This document shows positions 3,196 through 62,224 of a stretch of DNA of 64,000 bases, piece by piece (positions within the stretch are counted from its first letter, which is position 1; every line of letters begins with the position of its first letter). The translations under genes and the position numbers were made by a program. The notes below the pieces were generated by a model. The model was not told the DNA's origin, did not search any database, and was given only the letters and a program-made list of their open reading frames with translations. The stretch lies in NCBI RefSeq assembly GCF_056746865.1, contig NZ_CM163382.1. One strand, 5' to 3'.

Positions 3196-4325
3196 GCAAC
3201 GGCATTGTGATCATTGGTTCGGGCTTCGCCGCCCGCCAACTGGTGAAAAATATTCGCAAACAGGACGCCTGTATTCCATTAACCCTGATTGCCGCCGACA
3301 GCATGGATGAGTACAACAAACCGGACCTCAGCCATGTTATCAGCCAGAGGCAACGTGCCGATGACCTTACCCGCCAGACGGCGGGTGAATTTGCCGAGCA
3401 GTTTAATCTGCACCTGTTTCCGCACACCTGGATAATGGATATCGATGCCGAAGCCCATGTGGTGAAAAGCCAGAATAATCAGTGGCAATACGACAAGCTG
3501 GTGCTGGCAACTGGTGCCAGTGCCTTTGTCCCGCCAGTGCCTGGGCGTGAGTTAATGCTGACGTTAAATAGTCAGCAAGAGTATCGCGCCTGTGAAACGC
3601 AACTGCGGGATGCCCGACGCGTGTTGATTGTTGGCGGTGGCTTGATTGGTAGCGAACTGGCGATGGATTTTTGTCGTGCAGGCAAAGCGGTCACGCTAAT
3701 CGACAACGCTGCCAGTATTCTGGCGTCGTTAATGCCACCGGAAGTAAGCAGCCGCTTGCAGCATCGGTTGACGGAGATGGGCGTTCATCTGCTGTTGAAA
3801 TCTCAGTTGCAGGGGCTGGAAAAAACGGATTCTGGCATTCTGGCAACGCTGGACCGCCAGCGCAGCATCGAAGTGGATGCGGTAATTGCCGCCACCGGAC
3901 TGCGCCCGGAAACCGCCCTGGCACGACGCGCCGGGCTGACGATTAATCGCGGCGTTTGCGTCGATAGTTATCTGCAAACCAGTAATGCCGATATTTATGC
4001 GCTGGGCGATTGCACGGAAATTAACGGTCAGGTATTGCCGTTCCTCCAGCCGATTCAACTTAGCGCGATGGTGCTGGCAAAAAATCTTCTCGGCAATAAC
4101 ACGCCGCTGAAACTCCCTGCGATGCTGGTGAAAATCAAAACGCCAGAATTACCGCTGCATCTGGCAGGCGAAACCCAGCGTCAGGATTTACGCTGGCAAA
4201 TTAATACCGAACGCCAGGGAATGGTGGCGCGCGGTGTTGATGATGCCGACCAGCTTCGCGCCTTTGTGGTCAGTGAGGATCGGATGAAAGAGGCGTTTGG
4301 ATTGTTGAAAACGTTGCCGGTGTAG
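3192..4325 (+). CDS. norW: NADH:flavorubredoxin oxidoreductase
   Basis: 377-aa ORF overlapping the norV stop; N-terminal FAD/NAD fold GSGFAA, second dinucleotide motif GGGLIGSE. Confidence 0.95.
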
Positions 4326-4402: not shown

Positions 4403-6643
4403 CTATGCAGCATGCAGGATGCGCGCCGCAGCAATAACCCCCTGCCCCAGAGACAAGCCGCCATCACCCGCCGGTAAACTCTGCGGAAAGAGTAATGTGA
4501 AATCAGCGAGATAATGCGCCAGGCGTGTACGCAGCAATCGGTTATGAGTAACCCCACCGCTAAATACCAGCGTAGTGATACCGCGCATCGTGGCCTGCTC
4601 ACGCATCAACGCGGCAAAACCCTGCGCCAGCGCATCATGAAACGCCCACGCGCGTTGATTAACCGGTGCCTGCCAGTTCAGCCACTGCTGCCAGAAAGTG
4701 ACGAGATCCAGTTGATTGTCCACCTGCGGCATCGTCACCGGATGCGTCACTCCGTCGCATGAGGCTGCGAGCGCCTCCAGAGCACAAGCCGCTTCACCTT
4801 CATAACTTAACGTGGCTGGCGCACAGCCCAGTGCCGCCGCCACAGCATCGAACAAACGTCCACACGATGACGCCAGCGGCGCGTTAATTCCACGCTCAAT
4901 GGCCCGCGCCAGCACGCTCCAGTTTTGCTGTTGCACACTTGCCGTTTCAGGGTAATTCTGCCACTCCGGCACAAAGCGCAGGCACTGCGCCAGCAGGTTA
5001 CGCCACGGCTGCTTTGCAGCCAAATCGCCCCCCGGAAGCGCCACCGCAGGCAAGCCGCCCAGGTGCTCACATTCGCGATAGTTCACCCGCAGGCATTCGC
5101 CGCCCCATAAAGCGCCGTTCTCCCCCATACCGATACCGTCGAGCGTCAACGCAATGACATCACCGCCATCCAGTGGCCAGTGATGTTCTGCCAGACACGC
5201 CGCCGCATGAGCATGATGATGCAGCACCGTTTGTGTCGGCAGATTCATTTCGCGCGCCCACTGGCTGGAGACATAGCCCGGGTGCGCGTCATGCACAACG
5301 TATTGCGGGGTGAAATCGTAGATGTTTTGCATCAGGCGTAACGCTTCGCGCCACTGCATCTGGATGCCATCGTCACTTAAATCGCCCAGATGCTGACTCA
5401 ACACCGCTTGTTCGCCGCGCACCAGGCAGAAGGTGTTTTTCAGATCCGCACCGAGACACAGCACAGGCGGAACATTTTTAAAGCCCGGAGGCAAAGCCAG
5501 CGCATCCGGCACATACCCCCGCGAACGGCGCAGCATTTCGCCGCTTTCGCGCACCACCGAATCATCCATCCGCTGCACGATGTCGCGGTTATGTAGCAAG
5601 AATCCGTCGGCAATGCCCTGCAAATCCGCCAGCGCCTGTTCGTTGCTGATAGCCGGTGGTTTACCGCTCAGGTTGCCGGAGGTCATCACCAGCGGACATT
5701 GCAGTTCCTGTAACAGCAAATGCTGAAGCGGGTTCGCAGGCAACATTACCCCGACTTCGTTAAGGCCAGGGGCGATATCATCACAAAGCTCAGGTACGTA
5801 TTTTTTATCCACCAGCACAATCGGCGCGGCGGGCGTGGTAAGCAACTGGCGCGCAGCGTCTGGTAAACCTTCTGCCACTGGCAACATGACCGCCAGCGGT
5901 TTCGCCGGGCGATGTTTGCGCGCCCGAAGTGTCGCCACCGCGTTACTGTTACACGCATCGCAGGCGAGATGAAATCCGCCAATCCCTTTGATGGCGACAA
6001 TGTTGCCCATTTTTAACTGTGCGATAGCCGCCTGTAATGCCGCCTCTTGTTCTGCATGTTCACCATGACTTACCCATTCAAGATGTGGGCCACACTCCGG
6101 GCAGGCCACCGGCTGGGCGTGGAAGCGACGATCGAGCGGGTCGCGATATTCTTTGTCACAGGCCGGACACAGCGGAAACGCCGCCATCACGGTAAACGGG
6201 CGGTCGTAAGGCATCGCGCGAATAATGGTGAAACGTGGGCCGCAGTGGGTACAGTTGATAAACGGATAACGATAACGCCGCTCGCCCGGGGTATTCATTT
6301 CGGCAAGACAGGCAGGGCAAGTAGCGGCATCGGGAACAATTTGCGTATTCATGGTGCCGCCTGTGCTCTGGCGTATAGTGAACTCGGTGGGCAGTTGTGA
6401 CCAGATAAACGGCTCACGCTCGACGCTATCAATACGCGCCAGCGGCGGGCAGTGCTGATGCAACTGCACAAGAAACGTTTCCGGGTCTTCCAGCAGCCGG
6501 ACTTCCACTCCATCGCCGTCATTACAGACATCGCCGTGAAGATTTAATTGCTGTGCCAGCTGCCAGACAAACGGACGAAAACCGACGCCCTGCACTTTGC
6601 CACGAATACGCAGTTGGACACCGCAAGATGTGTTTTTTGCCAT
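4403..6643 (-). CDS. hypF: [NiFe]-hydrogenase maturation carbamoyltransferase HypF
   Basis: long ORF (open to 6715); start taken at [25 protein letters not shown]; acylphosphatase N-terminus and zinc-finger CxxC pairs. Confidence 0.9.
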
Positions 6644-15705: not shown

Positions 15706-16629
15706 TCACGCCGCCAGCAAGGAGACGAACGCTAAAAATGCAAAGCCAAACCCAGCCCAGGTAATGCGCGGAGTAATATCAAGACGCAGACGGGCCATGC
15801 TGTTTTCGAACAGCGCGATAACCAGGACGCCAACCACCAGTTTGACGATGGCAATCACCAGCGCCAGCAGCAACCCACCGACGGTGAAGGTTTCCATTTG
15901 TCCCCACGGAATAAACACCCCGACGAACATCTGCAACACCACCAGCTGTTTCAGGCTGATACCCCATTTCATGACGCCAAAGCCGCTGCCGCTATACTCA
16001 GAGAGCGGACCTTCCTGCAACTCCTGCTCGGCTTCCGCCAGGTCGAACGGCAGTTTGCCCATTTCGATAAAGGTGGCGAATGCACAGGCACAAAGCGCCA
16101 GCACCAGCGGGATGCTCTGGCTCAGCGGCCAGTGATAAACGGTGTCGGTGATGTTGCTGATGTTGGTGGAACCGGCAACCTGCGCCGCAACCCACAGACC
16201 AAGCAGCAGCATCGGTTCGACCAGCACGCCAAGCATCGCTTCACGGCTCGCGCCGATAGCGGTAAACGGGCTACCGGTATCCAGACCAGAAATGGCAAAG
16301 AAGAAACGCGCGATGGCAAAGAGATACAGTAAGGTGATCAAATCGCCCAGCTGCGGCAGCGGAGAACCAACGGTCACCACCGGCAGCGCAGTAGCGATAG
16401 TCAGCATGACGCCCACCATCACATACGGCGTCAGGCGGAACACCCAGCCGGAGGCATCCGGGCCAACGCTCTGGCGGCCCAGCAGTTTGATAATGTCGCG
16501 ATACTCCTGCAACACGCCCGGCCCGCGACGGTTATGCAAGCGGGCGCGCGCCACGCGGGTTATACCGGAGAGCAGCGGCGCAACGGCAAATAACACCAGC
16601 GCCTGAATTAACGGATATAAAACACTCAT
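15706..16629 (-). CDS. hycD: formate hydrogenlyase membrane subunit (NuoH-like)
   Basis: 307-aa hydrophobic ORF. Confidence 0.9.
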   Translation of the reverse strand: MSVLYPLIQALVLFAVAPLLSGITRVARARLHNRRGPGVLQEYRDIIKLLGRQSVGPDASGWVFRLTPYVMVGVMLTIATALPVVTVGSPLPQLGDLITLLYLFAIARFFFAISGLDTGSPFTAIGASREAMLGVLVEPMLLLGLWVAAQVAGSTNISNITDTVYHWPLSQSIPLVLALCACAFATFIEMGKLPFDLAEAEQELQEGPLSEYSGSGFGVMKWGISLKQLVVLQMFVGVFIPWGQMETFTVGGLLLALVIAIVKLVVGVLVIALFENSMARLRLDITPRITWAGFGFAFLAFVSLLAA

Positions 16630-16631
16630 TC

Positions 16632-18458
16632 TCAGGCTCCTCGTGAAACAATAATCACCACCAGTACCGCCAGTTCAACCAGCGCCATCCGGCGGAACAG
16701 CAACGCACTCCCCTCGCACTGCCAGCCCGGTACCAGCGACACCGGATTCAGCCATTTGCGCAGTTTCAGCACCGGCGCAAACGCCTGTTTCACCGGCATG
16801 GCAAAACCGTGAGCAGTAATCACCATTGATTTTTCATGGTCGTAGCCGCACACCCAGGCCGCGCCGCGGGAACGCGACGGCAAACGATCGCCTTTGCAAA
16901 TCGCCATAATGATGAATGGCAGCAGCGGGCAGGCAATCAGCAGCAACGTGATCATTGGTTGAGAAACGGTGGTGTTAGCAGGCTCCAGCGGCAGAGGTAC
17001 AGCAGCAGAGAGCATCGGCAGCAGCCACGGCGCAGCAACACCGCCAATTACGCAGCAAATCGCCAGTGCCACTACGCTTACGCTCATCAGGAGCGGCGCA
17101 CAGGTGGCGTTTTCGGCTTCTTTGGTACGCGGCGCGCCGAGGAACGTGACGCCATAGACTTTCGCCATACACATCACCGCCAGCGCACCGGTAATTGCCA
17201 GACCCACTGCGAGCAGCGGCCCCAGCAGACGGGCAACAAACGCGCCACTATTGCTCAGTTTGAAGAAGGATTGATAGATAACCCATTCCCCGGCAAACCC
17301 GTTCAGCGGCGGCAGCGCCGCCATTGCCATCAGCCCGACTAACATGGCGATGGAGATAACCGGCATTTTCTTGCCAATGCCACCGAGTTTTTCGATATCG
17401 CGATGACCGGTACGGAACCAGACGCTCCCCGCCCCGAGGAACAGTACGCTTTTGAACAGGCTATGGTTAAGCAGATGGTACAGACCACCGACCAGACCAA
17501 GGGCAATCAGCGTCGGTTGTTCGAGCGCGATACCCGTTACGCCAGCGCCCAGCCCCAGCAGGATAATGCCGATATTCTCCAGGGTGTGGTAAGCCAGCAA
17601 ACGTTGGATATTATGTTCCATCAACGCATACAGACCGCCGACAAACGCGGTGATCATACCGAGCACCAGCAGCGCGATCCCCCACCACAGCGGTGCATTA
17701 CCGCCCAGCAGTGACAGGGTTAAAATGCCCAGCAGGCCAATTTTCATGACTACCGTGGAAAACAACGCGGCAGCTGGCGCAGAGGCGTTAGCATGTGCCT
17801 GCGGCACCCAGCCGTGCAGCGGAATAATCCCGGCCAGCAGGCCAAAACCAATCACACCGAGCAGCCAGATATCGGAACCGAGCGGCAGCTGTTGCATACG
17901 CATATCCAGCAGGCGCAGATCCAGCGTGCCGTAACGCTGCCACAGCAGCCAACAGGCAATCGCCAGCAGCAGAGTGCCAAGACGCCCCAGCGCAAACCAC
18001 AGTTTGCCCTCTTTGCTGTTGCTGGTAAGGAACACCGCGCACAGGGCCATGATTTCGGCCATTACCACGAACATGCCGAGGTTGCTGGCAATGACGGCGC
18101 AGACGGCGGCAGCCATCAACATATTGATCTGCAAGCCGTTGCACTTCACCTGCGCGTGGCGATGCCAGTCAATGTTATAGAGGCTGACAAACAGACCGCA
18201 CAGACCGAGCGTAATCAGCCAAATCGCGTTAAGCGGAGAGATTTGCACATCGTAGCTTACCAGCGATAGCGCACCGCTCACGCCAACCGCGCCAGTCAGT
18301 ACAGTGAAGCCCGCGGCTGCCGTATACAGACTACCCACCGCGCCGCCAATTCCGGCTATCCAGCCGCTTAGCGCCTTTTGAAAAGAAAAGAGAAATGCCA
18401 GAACAGCGGCGGCGACAAACCACGCCACGCCGCTATTGATCAGGGAAATTGCGCTCAT
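16632..18458 (-). CDS. hycC: formate hydrogenlyase membrane subunit (NuoL/antiporter-like)
   Basis: 608-aa polytopic ORF. Confidence 0.9.
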   Translation of the reverse strand: MSAISLINSGVAWFVAAAVLAFLFSFQKALSGWIAGIGGAVGSLYTAAAGFTVLTGAVGVSGALSLVSYDVQISPLNAIWLITLGLCGLFVSLYNIDWHRHAQVKCNGLQINMLMAAAVCAVIASNLGMFVVMAEIMALCAVFLTSNSKEGKLWFALGRLGTLLLAIACWLLWQRYGTLDLRLLDMRMQQLPLGSDIWLLGVIGFGLLAGIIPLHGWVPQAHANASAPAAALFSTVVMKIGLLGILTLSLLGGNAPLWWGIALLVLGMITAFVGGLYALMEHNIQRLLAYHTLENIGIILLGLGAGVTGIALEQPTLIALGLVGGLYHLLNHSLFKSVLFLGAGSVWFRTGHRDIEKLGGIGKKMPVISIAMLVGLMAMAALPPLNGFAGEWVIYQSFFKLSNSGAFVARLLGPLLAVGLAITGALAVMCMAKVYGVTFLGAPRTKEAENATCAPLLMSVSVVALAICCVIGGVAAPWLLPMLSAAVPLPLEPANTTVSQPMITLLLIACPLLPFIIMAICKGDRLPSRSRGAAWVCGYDHEKSMVITAHGFAMPVKQAFAPVLKLRKWLNPVSLVPGWQCEGSALLFRRMALVELAVLVVIIVSRGA

Positions 18459-19066
18459 TTAGCCTCTCCACTTTGAGCCTGCTGAAACAAGGTGAGATCG
18501 CCAAAGTCCGTGTTAAAGGTCAGCTCACGCTTACGTTTGCTAACGCGGGCGATATCGGTGTTATCCACCAGATGCAGGGCTTTAGTAGGGCACATCCGCA
18601 CGCAGGCCGGACCTTGTTCATCAAAACTACAAAGGTCACATTTGACGGCGATCGCGCGAATACCTGGCACCCAGTCAAGCAATGTGCTGACACGCGCCGG
18701 AGCAGGCGGTGCCGGTGGCGCTTTCGGGGTATTGGCGTTTGCCGGAATATCCAGCGGACGGCTGCCGGAAAATTCAATTGCGCCAAACGGGCAGGCGATG
18801 CCGCACAGTTTGCAGCTTACGCACAGACTTTCATTCAACTGCACGGCCCCATCAACGCGGGTGATGGCGTTAACCGGGCAGACCACCGCACAAGGCGCAT
18901 CTTCACAGTGGTGACAGAGCTGCGGCGCAGATTCTTTTTCATTGAGCATCACTCGCAGGCGCGGCATTGATTGCAGGCCGTGCTGGCGATGCGTCTCTGA
19001 ACAGGCGGCCTCACAGGTGTGGCAGCCGATACAGAGCGTGGAGTCAGCAATTACAAAACGATTCAC
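18455..19066 (-). CDS. hycB: formate hydrogenlyase 4Fe-4S subunit
   Basis: 203-aa ORF with four ferredoxin Cys clusters (CIGCHTCEAAC). Confidence 0.9.
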   Translation of the reverse strand: MNRFVIADSTLCIGCHTCEAACSETHRQHGLQSMPRLRVMLNEKESAPQLCHHCEDAPCAVVCPVNAITRVDGAVQLNESLCVSCKLCGIACPFGAIEFSGSRPLDIPANANTPKAPPAPPAPARVSTLLDWVPGIRAIAVKCDLCSFDEQGPACVRMCPTKALHLVDNTDIARVSKRKRELTFNTDFGDLTLFQQAQSGEAK

Positions 19067-19190: not shown

Positions 19191-19652
19191 TCATGCTGCC
19201 GGGCTTTGTCCCTTTACCAGTTGGCTTAAATTCACCGGCACATTGTTTTCAATGGCGGTGTATAAGCTGTCGTAAACGCCAGCGATTTTTTCGAGATAGT
19301 GTTCCAGAACCTGTTCGCGATCGCGGATGTTGACCTTGCCATCAATCATGCCGTCAATGCTCAGTTGCGCCTGCGCAATCCGCTGTTTGTCTTCGCCATC
19401 TTTTGTTTCGACGTAATACTCGATGGTGTGGCTGTTAAAGCCATCCGCCAGGGTGACGTAAATGCGAAAATGTTCAAAAAGGACGAAACAGAGTTCTTTG
19501 TCCGGCGCGCAGCTCATGGCGTGATGCAGGCGCGCTTTCGATAACGTGATCCCCTGAACCAGCGAATTGCAGTAGATGTGCCACTGGTCCTGTAGGCGAC
19601 GATGCCGCTGTGCGATGTAATCGGCTTTCTCGCTTATTTCCCAAATAGTCAT
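19191..19652 (-). CDS. hycA: formate hydrogenlyase regulatory protein
   Basis: 153-aa ORF, first gene of the hyc operon, divergent from hypA. Confidence 0.9.
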   Translation of the reverse strand: MTIWEISEKADYIAQRHRRLQDQWHIYCNSLVQGITLSKARLHHAMSCAPDKELCFVLFEHFRIYVTLADGFNSHTIEYYVETKDGEDKQRIAQAQLSIDGMIDGKVNIRDREQVLEHYLEKIAGVYDSLYTAIENNVPVNLSQLVKGQSPAA

Positions 19653-45049: not shown

Positions 45050-46176
45050 GGGAGTTCTACCGCAGGGGCGGGGAACTCCAAGTGATGTCCATCATCGCAT
45101 CCAGTGCGTCCGGTTTATCCCCGCTGACGCGGGGAACACACATGAATGTCGGTTCAGACCGTGTTTTTACCCGGTTTATCCCCGCTGGCGCGGGGAACAC
45201 TGCCTCGGCGGCGGCTCTGCGCAACCGCGAAACGGTTTATCCCCGCTGGCGCGGGGAACACGTTAAACCGTGATGATCAGCAAAAGCTATTTCCGGTTTA
45301 TCTCCGCTGACGCGGGGAACACGTCAATAGGCGGCGTCCCGTAGCCGTCCCCTTCGGTTTATCCCCGCTGGCGCGGGGAACACTTGAAATGGTCCAGCAC
45401 TGCGACCGTCGGCCCCGGTTTATCCCCGCTGGCGCGGGGAACACGCTGGTGGCGCGGGCAAACGGAACAATCCCGCCGGTTTATCCCCGCTGGCGCGGGG
45501 AACACGCTAACCTATAACACGGAAAATCACACGCTAACGGTTTATCCCCGCTGGCGCGGGGAACACGGCCATTCCCCCAAGCAGACGCAGGAAGTTAACG
45601 GTTTATCCCCGCTGGCGCGGGGAACACCTGGATTTCACCTCAGCAAATGCTGGATGTGGCGGTTTATCCCCGCTGGCGCGGGGAACACCACCCCTGATAT
45701 TTTTGCCACCGTGGTTACTCCGGTTTATCCCCGCTGGCGCGGGGAACACAGAAATCAAACTCAGCGTGCAAATGGGGTAGCCGGTTTATCCCCGCTGGCG
45801 CGGGGAACACTTGCGTTATTTCTATCTGGTGAGTCGCGGCACCGGTTTATCCCCGCTGGCGCGGGGAACACGTATTTTTTATCGTCGCATGAGTCGCGGT
45901 AACCGGTTTATCCCCGCTGGCGCGGGGAACACTTCTGCCGCGCCAGCAAACGTATCGGCGGTCACGGTTTATCCCCGCTGGCGCGGGGAACACCCCAGGC
46001 CAAGCATTATATCCTGTGCGTCGTTCGGTTTATCCCCGCTGGCGCGGGGAACACACCAAGAAGCTGACGAATCAGCCCGACACGCACGGTTTATCCCCGC
46101 TGGCGCGGGGAACACCCAGTTTCATATGAGCCGCCGCGCTGGATCATCGGTTTATCCCCGCTGGCGCGGGGAACAC
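45050..46176 (-). CRISPR. type I-E CRISPR array: 18 full 29-bp repeats plus one degenerate terminal repeat, 18 spacers of 32 bp
   Basis: repeat cggtttatccccgctggcgcggggaacac at exact 61-bp period starting 45111 through 46148; variants at 45111 and 45294; degenerate copy 45050-45078; leader on the cas2 side. Confidence 0.97.
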
Positions 46177-46272: not shown

Positions 46273-47482
<1,210 letters not shown>

Positions 47483-47486
<4 letters not shown>

Positions 47487-48133
47487 GCCTCTGCTCCGGG
47501 TTTGATCAGCATCAGACCACAGCCGAACGCGCGGCTTTTGCCATACCCCTGGCTCAGACGTTGCAGAAATAACCCGGGATCGGTGACCGTAAGCATCCCC
47601 GTATAATCCACGCTACTGAACTGGATCAGTTGCCGGGAGTTTTCCCGCCACAGTTGCTGTTGTCGGTAGGCATCAACCGAGGTATCCAGCAGTGTAAAAC
47701 CGCTTCTCTCCCCCTGCGCTGCCAGCCAGTCCAGCGCCGCCTGTTGTTGATGCAACCAGACATCACTTCCTTCCGCCTGCCCCCTCACCTGCCGTTTCGC
47801 CTCCATCAGCAGATCGTGGCGCTTGCCCGCTTTACAGATTGTTGGATTCGCCCGCAGGTTGAAACAAAGTTGTTGTCCGGTACGCAGCTCGGGCACAAAT
47901 GACCGGCATTCGATGGTGAACGTTTCACTTTCTGCCGGGCGTTCCTGCGACAGTACAAAAAAGCGAAACGCGCCCTGGAGTTCTTCCCGACGATAAAGAA
48001 ATTGCCTTTCTTTGCCGCCAGGGAAGAGATCCCACAGCCACTGATGCATCACATATTCCCCGCGATCCACCAGATGCAGCAACTGCGCAGGCGAAAGCTG
48101 GCCGGTATGTAAGGTTATTCTTGAGAGGTACAT
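47483..48133 (-). CDS. cas6e: Cas6e (CasE) crRNA endoribonuclease, divergent I-E variant
   Basis: 216 aa from MYLSRITLHTG with RBS GGAGGA; conserved MYLS N-terminus, FNLRANP and C-terminal GKSRAFGCGL. Confidence 0.8.
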
Positions 48134-48837
48134 GGTTCCTCCTTGCTGAGCCACGGCCCCTGATTGACGGTGCGTTCCCCAAACAACCATTGCTGACGAT
48201 TTAAAGGAACATCCCGGCGGCGCAATATTTTGCTCGCGACCAGGCCGTCGTGCTCCCCTTCCCACCAGCATTCATCCTGAAGTTTCGGGAGTGCGATTTT
48301 CAGGTCGTGGAAATGCTCCTGATACTGGTGATATGCGTTACGTAAAACATCAGACGCGTTGCCTTCAAGCAGTAACGGCGCAAGTGGTAATGCCAGCGGA
48401 TGACTTTTTCGCCCCAGATAAAGCGGAAAAACTGGATGGCGTAAACCGCCCTGCAACTGTTCGAGGCTGTAAGGCGCATCGGCTGTTGTTGCCACCGCCA
48501 CCATCCACCAGGCGTCGGTGTAGTAGTCGCGCCGGGAGATAATCGCGCTCAGAAGATCAGGGTCGCTCAACTCTTCGCGACGGCTGAAATAACGCGCTTT
48601 ACGCACCTCTTTTGGCATCTGGATTGTGTGATAATCCCGTGCCCAGCGCGGGTTACGGCTGGCGCAAACCACCAGTGAATAGTGGCGGTTAAACACGTTT
48701 AATCGTTCGGTATCATCACGCCGAATCCCTACCCCGGCAGCCAGCAGCCCCAGCAATGCTGAGCGCGAAGGCAGTTCATGGGTATGACGCACTTCGCCCG
48801 CTCCAAACAAACATTTCTCAACGTCTACTGAAGTCCA
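48115..48837 (-). pseudogene. cas5e: cas5e (casD) lacking its 5-prime end
   Basis: frame reads ...HELPSRSALLGLLAAGVGIRRDD (Cas5 glycine-rich motif) but hits a stop at 48838-48840 with no ATG; upstream is AT-rich island DNA. Confidence 0.65.
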
Positions 48838-48969
48838 TCAAATCCACGAATATCAAGCCTTTCAGCCATTTTCATAGCTTATTAACGTCTACTCACAACT
48901 ACCAGAATCTACACACAGAAGTGTATAGTAATGCGTATAGGACAAAATTTATTTTTTGGAGCTATACAC

Positions 48970-50184
48970 ATGCTGCTTTCAGACCTTGCTATCAGGCGCG
49001 CGAAGCCGAAAGAAAAGGCTTATACACTCAATGACGGTAACGGGCTTTCGTTACTCATTGAGCCGAACGGCTCGAAAGGGTGGCGACTACGTTACAGATT
49101 TGCAGGAAAGCCCAAAATGTTGTCGTTGGGCGTGTACCCTGATGTGTCTCTGTCTGATGCCAGAGCGGCAAGGGATGAGGCTAAAAGGCTTCTTGCTGGT
49201 GGTATAAATCCAAGTGAGGCCAGAAAAGCTCAAAAGCGAGAACAGGCGAGCAAATTTGGCAATACTTTTGAGGGTATCGCTCGCGAATGGTATGAAAAGC
49301 GGATCGACAGGTGGTCATCGTCATACGCCGAGGAAATGATCGAGACGTTTGAAAAAGACGTTTTTCCGTACATTGGCGGCAGGCCGATCGCAGAAATTAA
49401 GCCAATGGAGTTGCTTGCGGTTCTCTCCCGTCTTAATGACCGTGGGGCGACCGAAAAATTGCGTAAGGTTCGCCAGCGATGCGGCGAGGTGTTCCGGTAC
49501 GCAATCATCACCGGACGCGCTGAATATAACCCCGCACCAGATCTGGCAAGCGCATTTGCTCCACACAAAAAAGAGCATTATGCCTATTTGAAGGCCGACG
49601 AACTGCCGGAATTTTTCCGCGTTCTTAATACGTACACCGGAAGCCAGATCGTCAAGCTGGGTATGCGATTATTGATTCTGACAGGGCTCCGGCCAGGGGA
49701 ATTACGACAGGCAGAATGGCAGGAGATCGATTTTGATAATCGTTTGTGGGAAGTGCCTAAAGAACGAATGAAGATGCGCCGTCCTCATTGTGTGCCGCTT
49801 TCAGAACAGGCGATCGCTATTCTGGAACAGTTAAAACACATGACGGGGCAGTATCAGTTTATTTTCCCTGGTCGAATCCAGCACAGTAAGCCGATGAGTG
49901 AAATGGCGATGAACGTGCTTATTCGTCGTATTGGCTATTCTGGGCGCGTTACTGGTCATGGGTTCCGGCACACGATGAGCACGATTTTACATGAGCAGGG
50001 CTATAACACCGCGTGGATAGAAACGCAGCTTGCACACGTTGATAAGAACTCAATTCGTGGCACGTACAATCATGCGCAATATCTGGACGGGCGGCGCGAG
50101 ATGCTCCAGTGGTACGCCGACTATATGGACTCACTGGAACAGGGCGGCAACGTGGTGCATGGCAAGTTCGGAAAATGTGGATGA
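48970..50184 (+). CDS. int: tyrosine recombinase, P4/CP4-57-type integrase
   Basis: 404 aa from MLLSDLAIRRAK; N-terminal arm-binding-like domain; C-terminal catalytic GHGFRHT and RGTYNHAQY. Confidence 0.9.
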   Translation: MLLSDLAIRRAKPKEKAYTLNDGNGLSLLIEPNGSKGWRLRYRFAGKPKMLSLGVYPDVSLSDARAARDEAKRLLAGGINPSEARKAQKREQASKFGNTFEGIAREWYEKRIDRWSSSYAEEMIETFEKDVFPYIGGRPIAEIKPMELLAVLSRLNDRGATEKLRKVRQRCGEVFRYAIITGRAEYNPAPDLASAFAPHKKEHYAYLKADELPEFFRVLNTYTGSQIVKLGMRLLILTGLRPGELRQAEWQEIDFDNRLWEVPKERMKMRRPHCVPLSEQAIAILEQLKHMTGQYQFIFPGRIQHSKPMSEMAMNVLIRRIGYSGRVTGHGFRHTMSTILHEQGYNTAWIETQLAHVDKNSIRGTYNHAQYLDGRREMLQWYADYMDSLEQGGNVVHGKFGKCG

Positions 50185-50312
50185 CTGGTTGAGTATACAG
50201 TAGTAGACTTTGAGCGACGAAAGAAAAAGCTGTGTCTAGGGTCGCTCCCGAAAAACCGTATACCTCGACGGGCTGGCACAGCCACTACAGTAGAGGACGC
50301 TGAGGTGTGCGT

Positions 50313-51110
50313 ATGATTGATATTCATGCCGAATTAAACGAATACAAAAAAGATTTTATTTCTTTACGTGAATTTCTTGAGGTCGTGCTTAAGGTCGCTG
50401 GTGATGATTATGATGTTTCAGATCTCATAACTTGGATACTCAGGAGAATAAGCGGAGAACATATCCGCCTGTACACAGTAAATGAATTTAAGCTGTTGGA
50501 ATCTTTTTGTAACCCGTATCGGGATGAATTTGATTATGATGTTCTTTATAGAAATCTGGATGCGGTTCGGAAACATGGTTGTTTACCTGGTGAGAGGGAT
50601 GAAAATGGTTTTCTGGTGTCCGGTTATTGGGAAGATCCCGAATTTGAGAACATTGGATTTATAAGGGGTGAAATTTTCGCAATTTTTCCCGATGTCCTTG
50701 ACGCGTTAACGAAGCTGGAAGGCGCTAACTCTTCTGAAAATGACGAGGTACAAGGACGCGATATTGAAAAGAAAGAGTTGCGTACAGAGGATGATTTATT
50801 ATCCCAAATCGCAATGCTGGAAAGAGAAAACGCAGAGTTAAGGGCAAGGATAGAGCAGTTAGAGCAAGAGCGCCCGATACACTTATATAAATACTGGGAT
50901 AAAGACCCATTAGCTAAGGCTATTGAGATTAGAAACAGAGAGTGGGCCAATTACGATCCAGAAAATGATTTTGCCACCAGGGGAAATCAAGAAGCGATAA
51001 CTAGGGAGCTTAAGCAGTGGGGGGCAAGTAATGCTCTTGCAACGCTCATAGAGAGGACTGCCTGCCCTATTAACCGAGACAACAGCCAAAAGAACGCAAA
51101 GCCGGATTAA
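50313..51110 (+). CDS. hypothetical protein (island cargo, unknown function)
   Basis: 265 aa from MIDIHAELNEYKK with RBS gagg; acidic, central coiled-coil-like segment (AMLERENAELRARIEQLEQE); no recognisable motifs. Confidence 0.6.
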   Translation: MIDIHAELNEYKKDFISLREFLEVVLKVAGDDYDVSDLITWILRRISGEHIRLYTVNEFKLLESFCNPYRDEFDYDVLYRNLDAVRKHGCLPGERDENGFLVSGYWEDPEFENIGFIRGEIFAIFPDVLDALTKLEGANSSENDEVQGRDIEKKELRTEDDLLSQIAMLERENAELRARIEQLEQERPIHLYKYWDKDPLAKAIEIRNREWANYDPENDFATRGNQEAITRELKQWGASNALATLIERTACPINRDNSQKNAKPD

Positions 51111-51125
51111 CGCACCATACCGCAT

Positions 51126-51270
51126 ACCCTGAGGGTGATTTACTGTTACCCTGAGGGTATTTTTTTATCTTCCCCGTCAATTTTACCATCACCCTTAGGG
51201 TAGATTTCCTCCCGATTACCATCACCCTTAGGGTTAATTTCCTTCCGGTAACCATTAGGCCTGAGGGTAT
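51126..51270. repeat. five copies of palindrome CCCT(G/T)AGGG within ~33-bp tandem repeats
   Basis: ccctgaggg 51127-51135 and 51149-51157; cccttaggg 51192-51200 and 51225-51233; cctgaggg 51260-51267; 33-bp units at 51184 and 51217. Confidence 0.6.
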
Positions 51271-51337
51271 GAAAATATTCGTTATTTCTGTGCCATGATT
51301 ACCTCGTCAAATTGAGTAGACGTTATGAGGTAAATAG

Positions 51338-51535
51338 ATGTCAAATACGCTTATTCGTTTAACAGAAGTTCAGCGTAGAACTGGATATAGCAAGGCATGG
51401 ATTTATCGCCTTATGGGGCAAGGTAAATTTCCTGCATCAGTTAAAATTGGCTCGCGAGCGATTGCTTTCGTTGAAAGTGAAATTGACGAATGGATCAATC
51501 AGCGTATTGCCGAATCACGCGGAACGGCTGCCTGA
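51338..51535 (+). CDS. alpA: AlpA/Vis-family HTH regulator (excisionase-like)
   Basis: 65 aa MSNTLIRLTEVQRRTGYSKAWIYRLMGQGKFPASVKIGSRAIAFVESEIDEWI; classic AlpA pattern. Confidence 0.8.
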   Translation: MSNTLIRLTEVQRRTGYSKAWIYRLMGQGKFPASVKIGSRAIAFVESEIDEWINQRIAESRGTAA

Positions 51536-51610
51536 TTAAATAGCTACGGGTTATTGCCCAAGCTATCCACTAGCAAATAAAAAGTAACTTAATTCGATAG
51601 CGGAGTTTTT

Positions 51611-52435
51611 ATGAAACTGCGAAAAACGCCCGTACAGGGGCAGGGCTTTGTTCGGCCTGAAAACCAGAATCTGCAAAATTTCGGCGAAATTATCCCGGTT
51701 ATTTCCGGCGTTATTGGCGGGCGTGAAGCCGCTGTTGTTAGCGCAAAAGCGTTACACAAAGCGTTGGGCGTGGGAAAAGACTTCTCTACATGGATCACTG
51801 ATCGTATCTCTGAATATGACTTCACCATTGGGTACGATTACTCAGTCCATAAAACAATTTCCCCAAATTTGGGGAAAAGCCCGAATGGCGAGGCTTACAG
51901 CAAGATTAAGCACTCTGGCAGACCCGGTAAAGACTATCTGTTAAGTGTCGGAATGGCGAAAGAACTGGCAATGATCGAACGCACCGAACAGGGCCGCGCC
52001 GTTCGTCAGTACTTCATCAAATGCGAGGAGGAGCTACACAAGGTAGCGCCTGTACGTTCCGCAGCGTTACGCCGGGAACTGAAAGCCCGTATCACCGTAG
52101 CCAGCTACTTTAAGCCAATGTGTGCCGCGCTGGAGGCGTACCGGGCTGAACTGGGTAAAAACACGCTCCAGCACCACTACACCACGGAAGCCAATATGCT
52201 GGCGCGTATCGTGCTGGGTGGCATGAATGCAAAACAGTGGGCGCAGGCGAACGGCATCACAGGCGAACCACGCGACCACATGAGCACGCTGCAGCTTGAG
52301 CACCTTTCTTACCTTGAGCAGAGCAATATCACGCTGATTGAGTTAGGCCAGGACTACCACCAGCGGAAAGCTGAATTAATTCGTCTTTCGCAACGCTGGT
52401 TAGCCCGCCGCATGGAGGTGAGCAGCCATGCGTAA
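51611..52435 (+). CDS. phage antirepressor-like protein (AntA/Rha-type)
   Basis: 274 aa; motif DFSTWITDRISEYDF...DYLLSVGMAKELAMI...RQYFI resembles antirepressor N-terminal domains. Confidence 0.55.
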   Translation: MKLRKTPVQGQGFVRPENQNLQNFGEIIPVISGVIGGREAAVVSAKALHKALGVGKDFSTWITDRISEYDFTIGYDYSVHKTISPNLGKSPNGEAYSKIKHSGRPGKDYLLSVGMAKELAMIERTEQGRAVRQYFIKCEEELHKVAPVRSAALRRELKARITVASYFKPMCAALEAYRAELGKNTLQHHYTTEANMLARIVLGGMNAKQWAQANGITGEPRDHMSTLQLEHLSYLEQSNITLIELGQDYHQRKAELIRLSQRWLARRMEVSSHA

Positions 52436-56692: not shown

Positions 56693-56715
56693 CTTCCCTG
56701 TGTGAGGTAAAAAGT

Positions 56716-56840
56716 TGCGGGTTATGCGGGTTATCCTGTGCATAAGTTAATTAACTGAATGATTAAAAAGGAAATTAATAACCCGCACGTAACCCGCAAA
56801 ACGGCAGTTATAACCCGCAAATGTGCGATTGTAACCCGCA
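56716..56840. repeat. iteron cluster TAACCCGCA (putative island origin of replication)
   Basis: direct copies at 56779, 56790, 56811, 56832 (spacing 11/21/21 bp) plus inverted tandem gcgggttat at 56717-56734. Confidence 0.65.
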
Positions 56841-56902
56841 AAATTTCACTGTAAGAGTGTAAACAAGCGTAACTATCACGTTAAAACCGGAGAACAAACA
56901 GC

Positions 56903-57328: not shown

Positions 57329-57411
57329 TTCACAACAGCGAACAGAGTAATTACCCAGTGCGCCGTAAAGCCCCGTCCTTCAGGTCGGGGATATAAGGCG
57401 CGGTTTTCCAC

Positions 57412-57828
57412 CTAACTAGGTGTTTGCTGTTGTTCAATGTATTGGCGGATGATGGATATTGGCGCACCTCCGCAGCTACTGGCAAAATAGCTGGGACTCC
57501 ATAAAACGCCTTTGTAGTAATACCTGACTGCAATATCTGGTCGATCTCGTCGCAATAATCTACTCGATACGCCCTTGAGACTGTTCACCAGGGTGGATAT
57601 CGCCAATTTGGGAGGATAGTTAATTAGCAGGTGAACGTGATCTCGTTCTCCATCCATTTCAACCAGTTCAGCTTCAAAATCAGCACATACACTTGAAAAG
57701 TAAGTGCGTAGTTTTTCTATTGCGTCATGGTCAAAAATCTGGCGTCGGTACTTGGTAACAAAGACCAGGTGAACGTGCATCAGGAAGACACAGTGCCTTC
57801 CACGTCGGATATCGGTTTCTTTTTTCAT
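57412..57828 (-). CDS. tnpA: IS200/IS605 Y1 (HUH) transposase TnpA
   Basis: 138 aa from MKKETDIRRG; HUH motif HVHLL and catalytic Tyr region VLWSPSYFASSCGG. Confidence 0.85.
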   Translation of the reverse strand: MKKETDIRRGRHCVFLMHVHLVFVTKYRRQIFDHDAIEKLRTYFSSVCADFEAELVEMDGERDHVHLLINYPPKLAISTLVNSLKGVSSRLLRRDRPDIAVRYYYKGVLWSPSYFASSCGGAPISIIRQYIEQQQTPS

Positions 57829-57850
57829 AGGCCAAAGTATAATTTGGCAT

Positions 57851-59059
57851 ATGAAACGACTACAAGCTTTCAAATTCCAGTTAAGACCAAATGGAAAACA
57901 GGAGCGTGAAATGAGGCGCTTCGCGGGCGCATGTCGTTTCGTTTTCAATCGTGCTCTGGCGCTTCAGAATGAGAATCATGAGGCCGGGAACAAATATATT
58001 TCTTATGCAAAGATGACTTCCTGGCTGGTTGAATGGAAAAATGCTACTGAAACGCAATGGCTTAAAGATTCTCCCTCACAGCCATTGCAGCAGTCACTGA
58101 AAGACCTTGAGCGAGCCTACAAAAATTTCTTTCAGAAGCGTGCCGCTTTTCCCCGATTCAAAAAGCGGGGACAGCATGATGCATTCCGCTATCCGCAGGG
58201 TGTTAAGCTCGATCAGGAAAACAGCCGTATTTTTCTGCCGAAACTGGGCTGGATGCGCTACCGGAACAGCCGTCAGGTCACGGGTGTTGTGAAAAATGTC
58301 ACTGTCAGCCAGTCCTGCGGTAAGTGGTACATCAGTATTCAGACAGAAAGTGAAGTATCAACTCCGGTTCACCCTTCAGCATTAATGGTCGGGCTGGATG
58401 CTGGCGTGGCTAAACTCGCCACGCTGTCAGATGGCACGGTCTTTGAGCCTGTAAACAGTTTTCATAAAAACCAGAAGAAGCTGGCGAGACTTCAGCGCCA
58501 GTTAAGCCGCAAGGTTAAATTCAGCAACAACTGGCAGAAGCAGAAACGCAAAATACAGCGACTGCATTCCCGTATCGCAAATATCCGCAGGGACTACCTT
58601 CACAAAGTCACAACGACCATCAGCAAAAACCACGCAATGATAGTCATTGAGGATTTGAAGGTCAGCAACATGTCAAAGTCAGCCTCGGGTACGGTCAGCC
58701 AGCCGGGGCGCAATGTCCGGGCAAAATCAGGTTTAAACCGTTCGATACTGGATCAGGGCTGGTATGAAATGCGCCGTCAGCTTGAGTACAAGCAGCTCTG
58801 GTGTGGCGGTCAGGTGCTTGCTGTTCCGCCAGCGTACACAAGCCAGCGTTGCGCGTGCTGTGGTCATACAGCGAAAGAAAATCGCCTGTCACAAAGTCAA
58901 TTCAGATGCCAGGTATGTGGATATACAGCGAACGCCGATGTAAACGGCGCTCGTAACATTTTAGCGGCGGGGCACGCCGTTCTTGCCTGTGGAGGGATGG
59001 TGCAGTCAGGCCGCCCGTTGAAGCAGGAACCCACCGAAATGATTCAGGCGACAGCCTGA
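57851..59059 (+). CDS. tnpB: TnpB (OrfB) RuvC-like RNA-guided nuclease
   Basis: 402 aa; N-terminus [17 protein letters not shown]; RuvC region [15 protein letters not shown]; zinc finger [12 protein letters not shown]...CQVCG; [10 protein letters not shown]. Confidence 0.85.
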
Positions 59060-59118
59060 ACGTAGCAGGAATCCACGTCCTTCAGGGCGTGGAGGATGTC
59101 AAATATCAATGCGACGAC
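58900..59118 (+). ncRNA. predicted TnpB omega-RNA (tnpB 3-prime end, right-end hairpin, flanking guide)
   Basis: inferred from IS200/IS605 architecture only; right-end hairpin 59073-59092; guide would be about 16 nt from 59103. Confidence 0.3.
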
Positions 59119-59692: not shown

Positions 59693-62224
59693 ATGCCAGT
59701 CGTACCAACAGTATCCGGACGTCAGGTTGAGAGCCGTGGAGTTCAGTCAGCAGGCTTGCAGACGTTTTCTCAGCCAGGTATTGGTGATGCTTTTGTTCGG
59801 GCAGGGGCAGAGGCAATTGATGTTTTTGGTCAGGCAAAACAGCGTGCCAATATTGCCTTGATTCAGGAGGCATCCCTTAAACTCAGTCAGATAGGCAGTG
59901 ATCTGCTGAATAATCCTGAAACAGGATTGCTTAACCTGAAAGGGAAAAATGCTATTGGAAAAGGCCATGAGTATACACAGCAGTTTGATGCTCAGATCGA
60001 ACAACTGGCTATGTCGCTGCCGGATGAACAGGCTCGTAATGCTTTCATGCAGCAGGCGCAGCAGCAGCGTATTCAGTTCGCTACGCAGGCCGGGAGGTAC
60101 GAGATAGGGCAAATAAATGCCTACGAAGAAGGCCAGTTTCAGGCGACACTGCTGAATAATGGTAAAAATGCCTCAGCATTATATGGCGACAACGCAGCAT
60201 ACATATTGGCTAATACGCAAACTTTCCAGCAAATTGAGGATTACGGTATTGCGCATGGCTGGAGCGACGAGCAAATCCAGGCCAAGAAAATCGAGTTTAA
60301 AGAAGCAACAGCAAAAGCAACTGCTCAAAATGCTATTGGAGCAAACTATCTTCAGGTAAGACAGCAAAATGGCGAGTTAAGCGATACTGCTGCTGGATCT
60401 CGCCGTGCTGTAGCAGATAGTGGCTCTTCCGATCGTACCCGCGGTATACGCAACAATAACCCCGGCAATCTTGAATACAGCAAAACTAATCCGTGGATTG
60501 GGCAGACTGGTGATGATGGTCGCTTTGCCAAATTCGAAACCCCTGAACACGGTATTCGCGCGCTTGGTCGCAATTTGCTGTCGTATCAGCGTCAGGGTTA
60601 TGACACCATCAGCGAAATAATTAATCGCTGGGCACCGGCCAGTGATGATAATAAAACTGATGCTTATATACGGGCAGTATGTGCTCAGCTCGGTGTAACT
60701 CCTGACCAGCCGCTTGACGCATCAAATCCTGACACACTGAAATCTCTGTGCAAAGCAATTATTCATCATGAGCAAGGCAGTCAGCCGTACAGTGATCAGC
60801 AATTGGCCGCTGGCGTTAGTGCCGCACTGGGGCTTTCTCAGCTACCGACAAAAAATAAACGTTATACCGGTGTAGCCTGGTTCGATGCTTTAAGTGAATC
60901 AGATCAGGCCAGCGTGTTGCGACAGACGGATGCATTAGCCAGACAGCAGCAGGCTGAATATAGAACGATGCTCGAAAGCCGGGTTCGCGATGCAACGGCT
61001 GCGTATATGCGTGGCGTTGAATTTCCTAACCCGCCTGGTGAGGGTGAGTTCATTGCTGCTTATGGTGTCAGAGAAGGAAACCTGCGATATACCGAGTTCA
61101 GAAATTTGCAGATCGCCGGACAGTATATAGGCTCTTTCCGCAACATGCCGACAAGCAGCATTACCGCATATGTTGAGCAATTACGCCCGGATACTGGTGA
61201 GACAGGGGAGGGGTATGCGTCTCGTGCGGAGTTATTCGACCGGGTATCGGCGGCAGCCACGAAGGTAATAACCCAGAGGCAGAATAATCCGTTTAGTGCA
61301 GCGGTGGAAATCGGAGCCTATAAGCCGATCACCAGCAACAACCCTGACGACATCACTGCCGAGGTGGCTAACCGTTTCTCGTCGCAGGAAAGCTTACGCG
61401 CGTTGGGAATTAATGCCCCACTCCTCAACAGTGAAGAGGCGGCTGCGCTGGCACAGCAGGTGCGCGGCACTCAGAACGTTGACCAGACAATTAAACTGTT
61501 GCAGAGCATGGGGGAGAAGCTGCCTGCGCCAGCAATACGGCAGGTGGCATCTGTAATTGCTCCGAACAGTGCGGCAACAGCCTATTCTGCGCTGCTGCTG
61601 GGCACGCCGGATAACCAGTACGACAACACCAGGCCGACGATCCCATATAGTCAGTTCATCGGGTATAAGCCGACGATGAACAAGTACGACGTTGCAAAGG
61701 TTATTCTTTCCGGCGACCAACTACTGAATCCGACGAAGGCCATGAAGAATGCGGGCATAACTCCGGTACAGTTGCCGAGCGAAGATAAGATGAAAGACGC
61801 TTTCGACGAACAGGTAGGTAATGCATTTGCCCGTAACCCGCAGTTACGCCAGATCAGTTATAGCCTTTTCAAAGCCGCTTACGCAGGAATAGCTTATCAA
61901 TCTGGTGATGCCTCTACGGTAAGAACCAGTATGCCTGATACAGACATTGTAGCTGATGCCGTGAAGTATGCTACTGGCGGTATATACAATGGTTTTAATG
62001 GCGGCGACGTTGTAATGCCTTTTGGCATGGATAAATCTACTTTCAAAGATCGCTATACCACATCTGCGAAACAAGCACTGAAAGATGCCGGACTTAACGT
62101 AAATGCAGTGTCAAATTTCACGCCAGTTAATATCGGCAATAACCGGTATCGGCTTGTAAATGGTAGCGGACGCTGGGCAACAGATCCCAGAACCAATAAA
62201 GCTATTGTCGTGAGGGTTGAATAA
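59693..62224 (+). CDS. large hypothetical protein (843 aa), Q/A-rich
   Basis: strong RBS aggagg; conserved-looking central block IRNNNPGNLEYSKTNPWIGQ...FAKFETPEHGIRALGRNLLSYQRQGYDTISEIINRWAP; no P-loop; function unknown. Confidence 0.7.
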   Translation: MPVVPTVSGRQVESRGVQSAGLQTFSQPGIGDAFVRAGAEAIDVFGQAKQRANIALIQEASLKLSQIGSDLLNNPETGLLNLKGKNAIGKGHEYTQQFDAQIEQLAMSLPDEQARNAFMQQAQQQRIQFATQAGRYEIGQINAYEEGQFQATLLNNGKNASALYGDNAAYILANTQTFQQIEDYGIAHGWSDEQIQAKKIEFKEATAKATAQNAIGANYLQVRQQNGELSDTAAGSRRAVADSGSSDRTRGIRNNNPGNLEYSKTNPWIGQTGDDGRFAKFETPEHGIRALGRNLLSYQRQGYDTISEIINRWAPASDDNKTDAYIRAVCAQLGVTPDQPLDASNPDTLKSLCKAIIHHEQGSQPYSDQQLAAGVSAALGLSQLPTKNKRYTGVAWFDALSESDQASVLRQTDALARQQQAEYRTMLESRVRDATAAYMRGVEFPNPPGEGEFIAAYGVREGNLRYTEFRNLQIAGQYIGSFRNMPTSSITAYVEQLRPDTGETGEGYASRAELFDRVSAAATKVITQRQNNPFSAAVEIGAYKPITSNNPDDITAEVANRFSSQESLRALGINAPLLNSEEAAALAQQVRGTQNVDQTIKLLQSMGEKLPAPAIRQVASVIAPNSAATAYSALLLGTPDNQYDNTRPTIPYSQFIGYKPTMNKYDVAKVILSGDQLLNPTKAMKNAGITPVQLPSEDKMKDAFDEQVGNAFARNPQLRQISYSLFKAAYAGIAYQSGDASTVRTSMPDTDIVADAVKYATGGIYNGFNGGDVVMPFGMDKSTFKDRYTTSAKQALKDAGLNVNAVSNFTPVNIGNNRYRLVNGSGRWATDPRTNKAIVVRVE

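Follow-up and report, generated by a model that had tools for sequence, protein, structure and literature searches.

A GTCTAC box in the attachment arm of an Escherichia coli phage satellite as the predicted DNA site of its AlpA protein

Which protein reads the short sequence that recurs around the integrase gene of an Escherichia coli phage satellite? The stretch considered here, 64,000 nucleotides of contig NZ_CM163382.1 (NCBI RefSeq assembly GCF_056746865.1; hereafter the window), carries an island that interrupts cas5e and in which int, encoding a tyrosine integrase (Int), is followed by a variable open reading frame (ORF) and by alpA. The 10-mer AACGTCTACT occurs exactly at 48820-48829 and 48884-48893 on the plus strand, and as its reverse complement at 51315-51324. 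A sequence-only reading of the window had drawn attention to this repetition and offered either integrase arm or core sites or AlpA operators as its meaning. We consider it probable that the island's own AlpA, a 65-amino-acid Vis-like excisionase and regulator, recognises a DNA site in which AACGTCTACT is the unit conserved best.

The repetition is far beyond chance. Chance alone predicts 0.04 copies of AACGTCTACT per window, and three copies were reached in 0 of 100 shuffles; exact copies stand at both of the places where the repeat had been reported. Equally sound was the report of a longer match, since the 13-mer TAACGTCTACTCA lies at 48883-48895 on the plus strand and recurs inverted at 51313-51325, 13 nt 5' of the alpA start codon (51338). 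The 6-mer GTCTAC shows no window-wide enrichment (13 seen against 12.9 expected), but the 2.5-kb int-alpA module holds 4 of the 13. A partial inverted copy, GTAGAC at 50203-50208, just 3' of the int stop codon, had been overlooked.

Where these copies stand relative to the island end is informative. The sequence-only reading had set the cas5e/island junction at 48820; instead, identity to intact cas5e stops at 48798 and identity to islands at the tRNA gene glyU starts at 48792, which places the crossover in the shared CTTCGCC at 48792-48798. Both plus-strand copies belong to the left attachment site (attL) arm of the island, the first lying 22 nt inside the island and 15 nt past the tRNA-derived CCA end, the second 79 nt past it. 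The island runs beyond the window end at 64000, so the right attachment site (attR) was read from strains SCU-105 and ETEC1747. In neither of these two strains is GTCTAC or GTAGAC present within 300 bp of attR. The far-end comparison proposed with the original observation thus finds the motif absent from the other island end, and the companion comparison with related elements finds it at the same positions in dozens of them, far over background. A motif that is confined to one arm yet kept in relatives shows the pattern predicted for the site of an excisionase, or recombination directionality factor (RDF), and not for an Int arm site.

The comparison drew on 10 E. coli islands and, through the AlpA alignment, 79 loci from other Enterobacterales; 57 dereplicated loci supplied regions upstream of int and alpA. 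The tRNA targets of these 57 loci differ and their Ints are 36-81% identical to that of the window, yet all follow a single arm plan from the tRNA end to int. Cluster I, with the family form (A)ACGTCTACT-AAGTCyAC, stands about 12-17 nt past the tRNA end; cluster II, with the consensus ACGTCTACTnnnnTCTAyTGAAATCTACA, follows about 64 bp on; then come a doubled motif specific to the Int clade and an inverted copy at the int start codon. Over the 200 bp before int, GTCTAC has a density of 7.8 per kb, compared with 0.26 per kb elsewhere in these loci, and 88 of the 89 copies in those 200 bp are on the plus strand. There are 46 occurrences at -150/-140 from the int start codon, exclusively on the plus strand, and 33 of the 57 loci have one at -90.

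Phasing points in the same direction. In anchored alignments each cluster resolves into three or four repeats with information peaks every 10 bp, and direct repeats one helical turn apart are typical of RDF operators (PMC7498355). The boxes of the window show this spacing, as does the family consensus. Cluster I (48813-48848, plus strand) consists of AACGTCTACT at 48820-48829 followed by GTCCAT (48833) and ATCCAC (48842), and cluster II (48877-48912, plus strand) of AACGTCTACT at 48884-48893 followed at 10-bp spacing by AACTAC (48897) and ATCTAC (48907). With their hexamers at 48823, 48833 and 48842 and at 48887, 48897 and 48907, the two clusters are 64 bp apart, and we predict both to be AlpA sites. 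The order of core (48792-48798), boxes (48820, 48884) and arm sites (48921-48940) is the same in the 57 loci and in satellite P4. The boxes thus occupy the int-proximal arm between core and arm sites, and the element encodes a small winged-helix protein as their putative cognate RDF. In relatives, the final cluster II repeat overlaps TTGAAA, the -35 element of a P4-type int promoter, and at a distance of 17-18 bp from it the doubled arm motif holds a -10-like hexamer; promoter positions were placed by analogy with P4. This overlap means that AlpA and Int both could affect int transcription.

The type of box goes with the type of AlpA. Islands of Xenorhabdus and Yersinia have Ints 71-75% identical to P4 Int (80-88% in the N-terminal domain) and the P4 arm motif GGGGCAT; their AlpA is nevertheless of the window type (70-82% identical) and their boxes are GTCTAC. 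The window island pairs this AlpA type and this box with another Int and another arm motif. P4, carrying Vis, has GTCCR repeats at both box places and inverted copies upstream of vis. EcCICFT073, with a divergent AlpA, has TTGTTYC as direct repeats in attL and five inverted GAACAAC directly after the int stop codon. Taken together, the window, the Xenorhabdus and Yersinia islands with their P4-like Ints, P4 and EcCICFT073 form a double dissociation in which the box tracks the AlpA/Vis type and not Int, as is expected of a site that follows its RDF. Also in favour of AlpA as the binder, its recognition helix, TGYSKAWIYRL, is nearly invariant across the locus set. The positions, phasing and conservation of the box, its distribution on one arm and its association with AlpA type are direct observations.

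Two further sets of copies lie within the int-alpA module. Cluster III (50194-50212, minus strand) is reduced in the window island to the single inverted GTAGAC just after the int stop codon. In 33 of the 57 loci two or three inverted GTAGAC, 10 bp apart, occur within 60 bp after the int stop codon, in constant orientation and directly upstream of the int-alpA RNA. This RNA (Rfam RF02996; 50229-50296, plus strand; 46.9 bits against a gathering score of 35.8) forms the conserved leader ahead of the variable ORF; relatives have the inverted GTAGAC repeats before it and the conserved Shine-Dalgarno (SD) sequence of that ORF after it. Box IV (51306-51325, minus strand), in the alpA leader or promoter, combines the inverted 13-mer with a phased repeat, TTTGAC, and is a predicted AlpA autoregulatory site. 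Of the 57 loci, 26 have ACGTCYAY in the 130 bp that precede alpA, with 0.49 expected; counted by unrelated leader class, 18 of 30 carry the box in one orientation or the other, with about 0.6 expected. Because orientation varies between leader classes, recognition is likely to take place at the level of DNA, and we rejected RNA-level recognition of the alpA-leader copy as the principal explanation on the same ground.

The alpA leader also has the potential to fold. An inverted repeat, TACCTCGT...ATGAGGTA (51300-51332, plus strand), places its 3' arm over the alpA SD and box IV in its loop. The stems differ by leader class (CTCGTAA/TTACGAG, CTCCTGTAG/CTACAGGAG, CCTGTT/AACAGG and, in the window, TACCTCGT/ATGAGGTA), and the alpA SD is paired in 42 of the 57 loci against 19.6 in shuffles, compared with 17 against 15.4 for int leaders as a control. 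The window hairpin taken alone is not more stable than shuffles. The hairpin pairs an anti-SD sequence with the SD and may act as a translational gate on the master regulator.

If AlpA is the binder, it would occupy clusters I and II cooperatively and bend the int-proximal arm where this runs from the core to the arm sites; the bent arm would allow Int to assemble an excisive complex at attL, as with P4 Vis. Vis is reported by Cali and colleagues (2004) to protect two boxes between core and int. P4 Vis binds attP DNA in electrophoretic mobility shift and footprinting assays, bends attP and represses the int promoter, Pint (PMC2603039, PMC7498355, PMC7286903). As cluster II reaches the int promoter region, the same binding event may modulate int transcription, and through the inverted copies after the int stop codon (50203) and in the alpA leader (51313-51325) AlpA may regulate the transcription unit that holds its own gene. 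In EcCICFT073, experiments showed that AlpA switches on its own promoter and sets off excision that depends on Int (PMC6092414). For the window island we infer which protein binds, that it bends the DNA and in which direction it regulates.

Several points weigh against assigning the boxes to AlpA. The assignment rests on co-occurrence and analogy, and the P-values for enrichment ignore shared ancestry. AlpA of EcCICFT073 left Pint activity unchanged (PMC6092414), so it is uncertain whether cluster II serves to regulate int. About 40% of leader classes lack the alpA-proximal box or have it with one base changed, and cluster III of the window island is down to one repeat. Window-type AlpA is too uniform for fine residue-to-base covariation. 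An arginine-to-lysine change in the recognition helix goes loosely, with exceptions, with the box variants GTCCAC and GTCTAG; this covariation is suggestive at most.

Alternatively, cluster III and box IV, as distinct from the clusters in the arm, could be loading sites at which AlpA, bound inside a promoter, joins RNA polymerase in the manner of a Q protein and so permits read-through of the int-alpA RNA and the alpA hairpin; it would then be neither an activator nor a repressor of the classical sort. Arguing for this case, AlpA of Pseudomonas aeruginosa is an antiterminator that needs an element between -35 and -10 (PMC7969949), and the AlpA of phage-inducible chromosomal islands (PICIs) is described as one that 'activates' its own operon (PMC6092414). 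A conserved structured RNA and a hairpin come immediately 3' of the boxes, and a consensus promoter scan of 48700-51700 found no sigma-70-like site. Counter to this, the Pseudomonas AlpA-binding element, GGGACGN5GGTA, is unrelated in sequence to the GTCTAC box and is unmatched here. The int-alpA RNA lacks a U-tract in the window island and close relatives, so it is no obvious terminator there. Such loading strikes us as unlikely; because it is compatible with an RDF role at attL, its probability and that of the AlpA-box interpretation are not shares of a single whole.

A conserved host factor, whether a nucleoid protein or a response regulator, might instead bind the repeats and be used by the island for intasome architecture. 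This would explain why the box is constant over many genera while island proteins vary; an IHF site is part of P4-type attachment arms (PMC7286903), and the interval from cluster I to cluster II has a WATCAA-like element. The box is nonetheless not shared by elements that share a host: P4, CP4-57 and EcCICFT073 have their own repeats at the same positions, matching their own AlpA or Vis, and additional copies cluster around alpA. GTCTAC is also unlike the consensus of IHF or Fis. We therefore hold a host binder to be quite improbable. An IHF site had separately been considered as the motif itself and was rejected, as GTCTAC misfits WATCAANNNNTTR and the WATCAA-like element lies between the clusters instead.

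Integrase arm-type sites, the first option of the sequence-only reading, fare less well still. The copies are direct repeats in an attachment arm beside int, and the binder of PICI attachment-arm repeats was left open in PMC10111431. The positions annotated as attP arm repeats in the P4 GenBank record are, however, taken in the window by a different motif, the doubled GTGTATAG-N4-GCGTATAG at 48921-48940 (plus strand). A third, inverted copy, CTATACAC (48962-48969, minus strand), abuts the int start codon, an arrangement annotated in P4 at 3915-3926 and seen in all clades. At attR of both SCU-105 and ETEC1747 the doubled motif is present as well, some 80 bp ahead of the core, and it alternates with the clade of the Int N-terminal domain, appearing as GTGTATAG, GGGGGTA, GGGGCAT or GACGGTAT. 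The GTCTAC box, which the two attR arms lack, is not found on both arms of attP and does not change with the Int N-terminal domain, staying constant across Ints of 36-81% identity; P4 has another box despite an arm motif in common with the GTCTAC-bearing Xenorhabdus islands. The sequence comparisons identify the doubled GTGTATAG/GCGTATAG motif, and not the GTCTAC box, as the true Int arm-type sites, and an arm-site role for the box itself is very improbable. Of the two original options, then, the operator half is favoured by comparative evidence, and the arm/core half gives way, with CTTCGCC as the core and the neighbouring doubled motif as the arm sites.

That the copies are a functionless remnant of duplication or recombination between island segments, or that a mobile int cassette ends in the inverted 13-mers, has next to no probability: full 13-mer identity between 48883 and 51313 is confined to the window island lineage, as a remnant would predict, but the motif core stays fixed in place while flanks, tRNA target, Int clade, intervening ORF and alpA leader class vary, and in the alpA leader its presence is kept even as its orientation flips between classes.

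From 48792 on, the window is 99.5-100% identical to a 19.2-kb island at the tRNA-Gly gene glyU in SCU-105 and about 35 other complete genomes; the SCU-105 copy, 19.2 kb long, is bounded by the attL/attR repeat TTCCCTTCGCC(C)GCTCCAA. Its genes in the window are int, the variable ORF, alpA, antA, BRO-N, an Icd-like gene, a DUF927 primase gene and ssb, and this gene order is that of Gram-negative PICIs and P4-like satellites (PMC6092414, PMC10111431). With co-oriented int, alpA and primase genes, small size and site-specific integration between flanking attachment repeats, the island is a P4-like/PICI phage satellite whose usual site is tRNA-Gly glyU. Neither capsid nor terS genes were recognised in as much of the island as the window contains.

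How did such a satellite come to lie in cas5e? The host is E. coli, with a type I-E CRISPR array at 45050-46176 and cas2, cas1, cas6e and cas5e on the minus strand; the cas5e remnant occupies 48115-48810. The cas5e/island junction reads GACGCACTTCGCCCGCTCCAAAC, in which the seven crossover bases (plus strand) are common to cas5e and the 3' end of glyU. The attP-derived part of attL, by alignment to the glyU-int region of SCU-105, is the last 14 nt of tRNA-Gly, CTTCGCCCGCTCCA (48792-48805, plus strand); these 14 nt are all of glyU that is present, and a tRNA scan of the window gave no match. On the cas5e side, GGGTATGACGCACTTCGCC matches the glyU T-arm GGGTTCGATTCCCTTCGCC at 14 of 19 positions. 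ETEC1747 carries a different island variant, with int and alpA deleted, at the identical cas5e site, the corresponding stretches lying at 6215-6287 and 16376-17071 of its locus, and both of its reciprocal junctions form around the same 7 bp. The satellite thus entered a pseudo-attB inside cas5e by site-specific recombination, and the insertion splits the Cascade operon. A plain deletion between cas5e and glyU was considered and rejected, since the orientation does not fit and ETEC1747 has both reciprocal junctions.

The junction was found in 1 of 5426 complete E. coli genomes. The two strains with different island variants at one cas5e site suggest recurrent use, a less ordinary by-product of the analysis. 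The case indicates that a satellite integrase is able to disable a CRISPR-Cas operon through secondary-site insertion. In the same operon, cas1e is broken into ORFs at 46563-46802 and 46887-47486, and an identical allele is annotated in strain 118UI as a pseudogene with an internal stop. With cas1e already broken, the CRISPR-Cas locus was decaying before the island inserted, or apart from it. At the attR of SCU-105, the tRNA fragment (19337-19355) has a 1-nt deletion directly after CTTCGCC, which helps to place the crossover. It agrees with a published description of the attR fragments of PICIs, 'damage starting at a specific acceptor-stem site' (PMC10111431).

Within the module, int (48970-50184, plus strand; RefSeq annotation of an identical gene) encodes a P4-family integrase of 404 amino acids that is 39% identical to P4 Int and scores 329 bits against NCBIfam NF007246, below the curated cut-off of 434 (E 2.7e-98). 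The variable ORF between int and alpA (50313-51110, plus strand) encodes a coiled-coil protein of 265 amino acids that had no NCBIfam match; other islands have DUF6387 or other ORFs at this position. The predicted box binder is encoded by alpA (51338-51535, plus strand), whose product is a winged-helix protein of the AlpA/Vis family (Pfam PF05930, E 2.8e-19), 37% identical to P4 Vis and matching the AlpA-family protein of PDB 8c3t. The NCBIfam search gave no name for AlpA or the neighbouring ORFs.

Between the stop codon of the 265-codon ORF and alpA, the palindrome ACCCTnAGGGT occurs five times (51126, 51148, 51191, 51224 and, degenerate, 51259; span 51126-51269), and other islands have different repeats in this interval, of the GGTGGGyAC and ACTTCCAc types. 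These look like modular operators, and the product of the variable upstream ORF or a helper-phage factor are possible binders. Farther into the island, the iterons TGCGGGTTAT/TAACCCGCA lie 3' of the DUF927 primase gene (56707-56850) and are repeated near the right end of the SCU-105 island (18690-18850); by analogy with P4 they are likely ori/crr-type binding repeats of the primase. An IS200/IS605-type element at 57355-59102, with tnpA at 57412-57948 (minus strand) and tnpB at 57851-59059 (plus strand), replaces 983 bp of the SCU-105 island, a segment that carries a gene of the ProQ/FinO family, one hypothetical gene and the 5' end of perC. From 59693-62224 onward, late in the island, the ORFs are large (843 amino acids in the window; hypothetical genes of 2-2.8 kb in SCU-105), and no capsid or terminase genes were recognised among the large ORFs of either copy; they may be cargo or serve in defence or in the virion.

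A more ambitious extension of the AlpA-box interpretation may be offered tentatively. The boxes bracket int, direct upstream and inverted downstream, beside the int-alpA RNA and the SD hairpin, so that one protein could run a compact switch. A single 65-amino-acid AlpA, forming a filament or loop across int, would then couple excision, shut-off or activation of int and a positive feedback in which transcription reads through into its own operon, perhaps through Q-like antitermination of the kind known for Pseudomonas AlpA. The hairpin would gate alpA translation until a helper-phage signal. Separately, the integrase of the same element could use the cas5e pseudo-attB, apparently more than once, inactivating the type I-E operon. 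As a whole we regard this scheme as doubtful.

AlpA is the master switch of Gram-negative PICIs and P4-like satellites, elements that are very common, and as far as the searchable literature shows, the DNA site of AlpA in the main enterobacterial family is apparently undefined. A search of that literature did not find the GTCTAC box, its separation from Int arm sites, the extra cluster by the int-alpA RNA or the SD hairpin. A box set apart from the Int arm sites would provide direct targets for mutagenesis and footprinting. Once defined, it would serve the annotation of attachment arms and the prediction of AlpA cross-excision between islands, and would offer a way into the question of how helper phages turn satellites on.

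The kind of arrangement proposed is already known: RDF boxes in an attachment arm, bound by a protein that doubles as a regulator, are found with P4 Vis, 186 Apl and P2 Cox. Among the systems compared, the AlpA of P. aeruginosa is of the same Pfam family and is likewise a positive regulator acting through a short DNA element (PMC7969949), but GGGACGN5GGTA lies inside a promoter spacer, serves antitermination and has no attachment-site function. Phage 186 Apl, P2 Cox and lambda Xis offer direct repeats one helical turn apart on one attachment arm, cooperative binding with bending and a promoter role as well (PMC7498355); in the window the repeats and their place on one arm are observed, and the binding, bending and promoter role are predicted. 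Their proteins are unrelated or distant and their operators have other sequences; the second set of sites in 186 and P2 is at the lysis-lysogeny switch, whereas that of the window island is around the int-alpA module.

Helper-embedded PICIs have a doubled attachment motif at -81 and +132 of the attP centre (Williams laboratory, PMC10111431), close to the spacing of about -77/+135 in the window island; this motif corresponds to the GTGTATAG arm sites and not to AACGTCTACT. It was not found outside helper-embedded PICIs in that study, in contrast to our finding that clade-specific doubled motifs are present in all Int clades compared. EcCICFT073 belongs to the same class of element, with the gene order int, alpA, Icd-like, primase, direct repeats in attL and inverted repeats after int. 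It differs in its AlpA (36% identity), in its repeat TTGTTYC, in not being tRNA-borne and in having repeats near its right end as well.

The closest counterpart is P4. The regulators and integrases are homologous (Vis/AlpA 37%, Int 39% identity), and Vis is an excisionase that also regulates the int and late promoters (PMC7286903, PMC2603039). The box is GTCCR in P4 and GTCTAC in the window, and the window island has an extra cluster after the int stop codon beside the int-alpA RNA. The geometry of attachment is the same in both: the core is followed by two boxes separated by about 64 bp and then by the doubled arm repeats, and one more arm repeat stands inverted where int starts. Both have inverted box copies upstream of the regulator gene.

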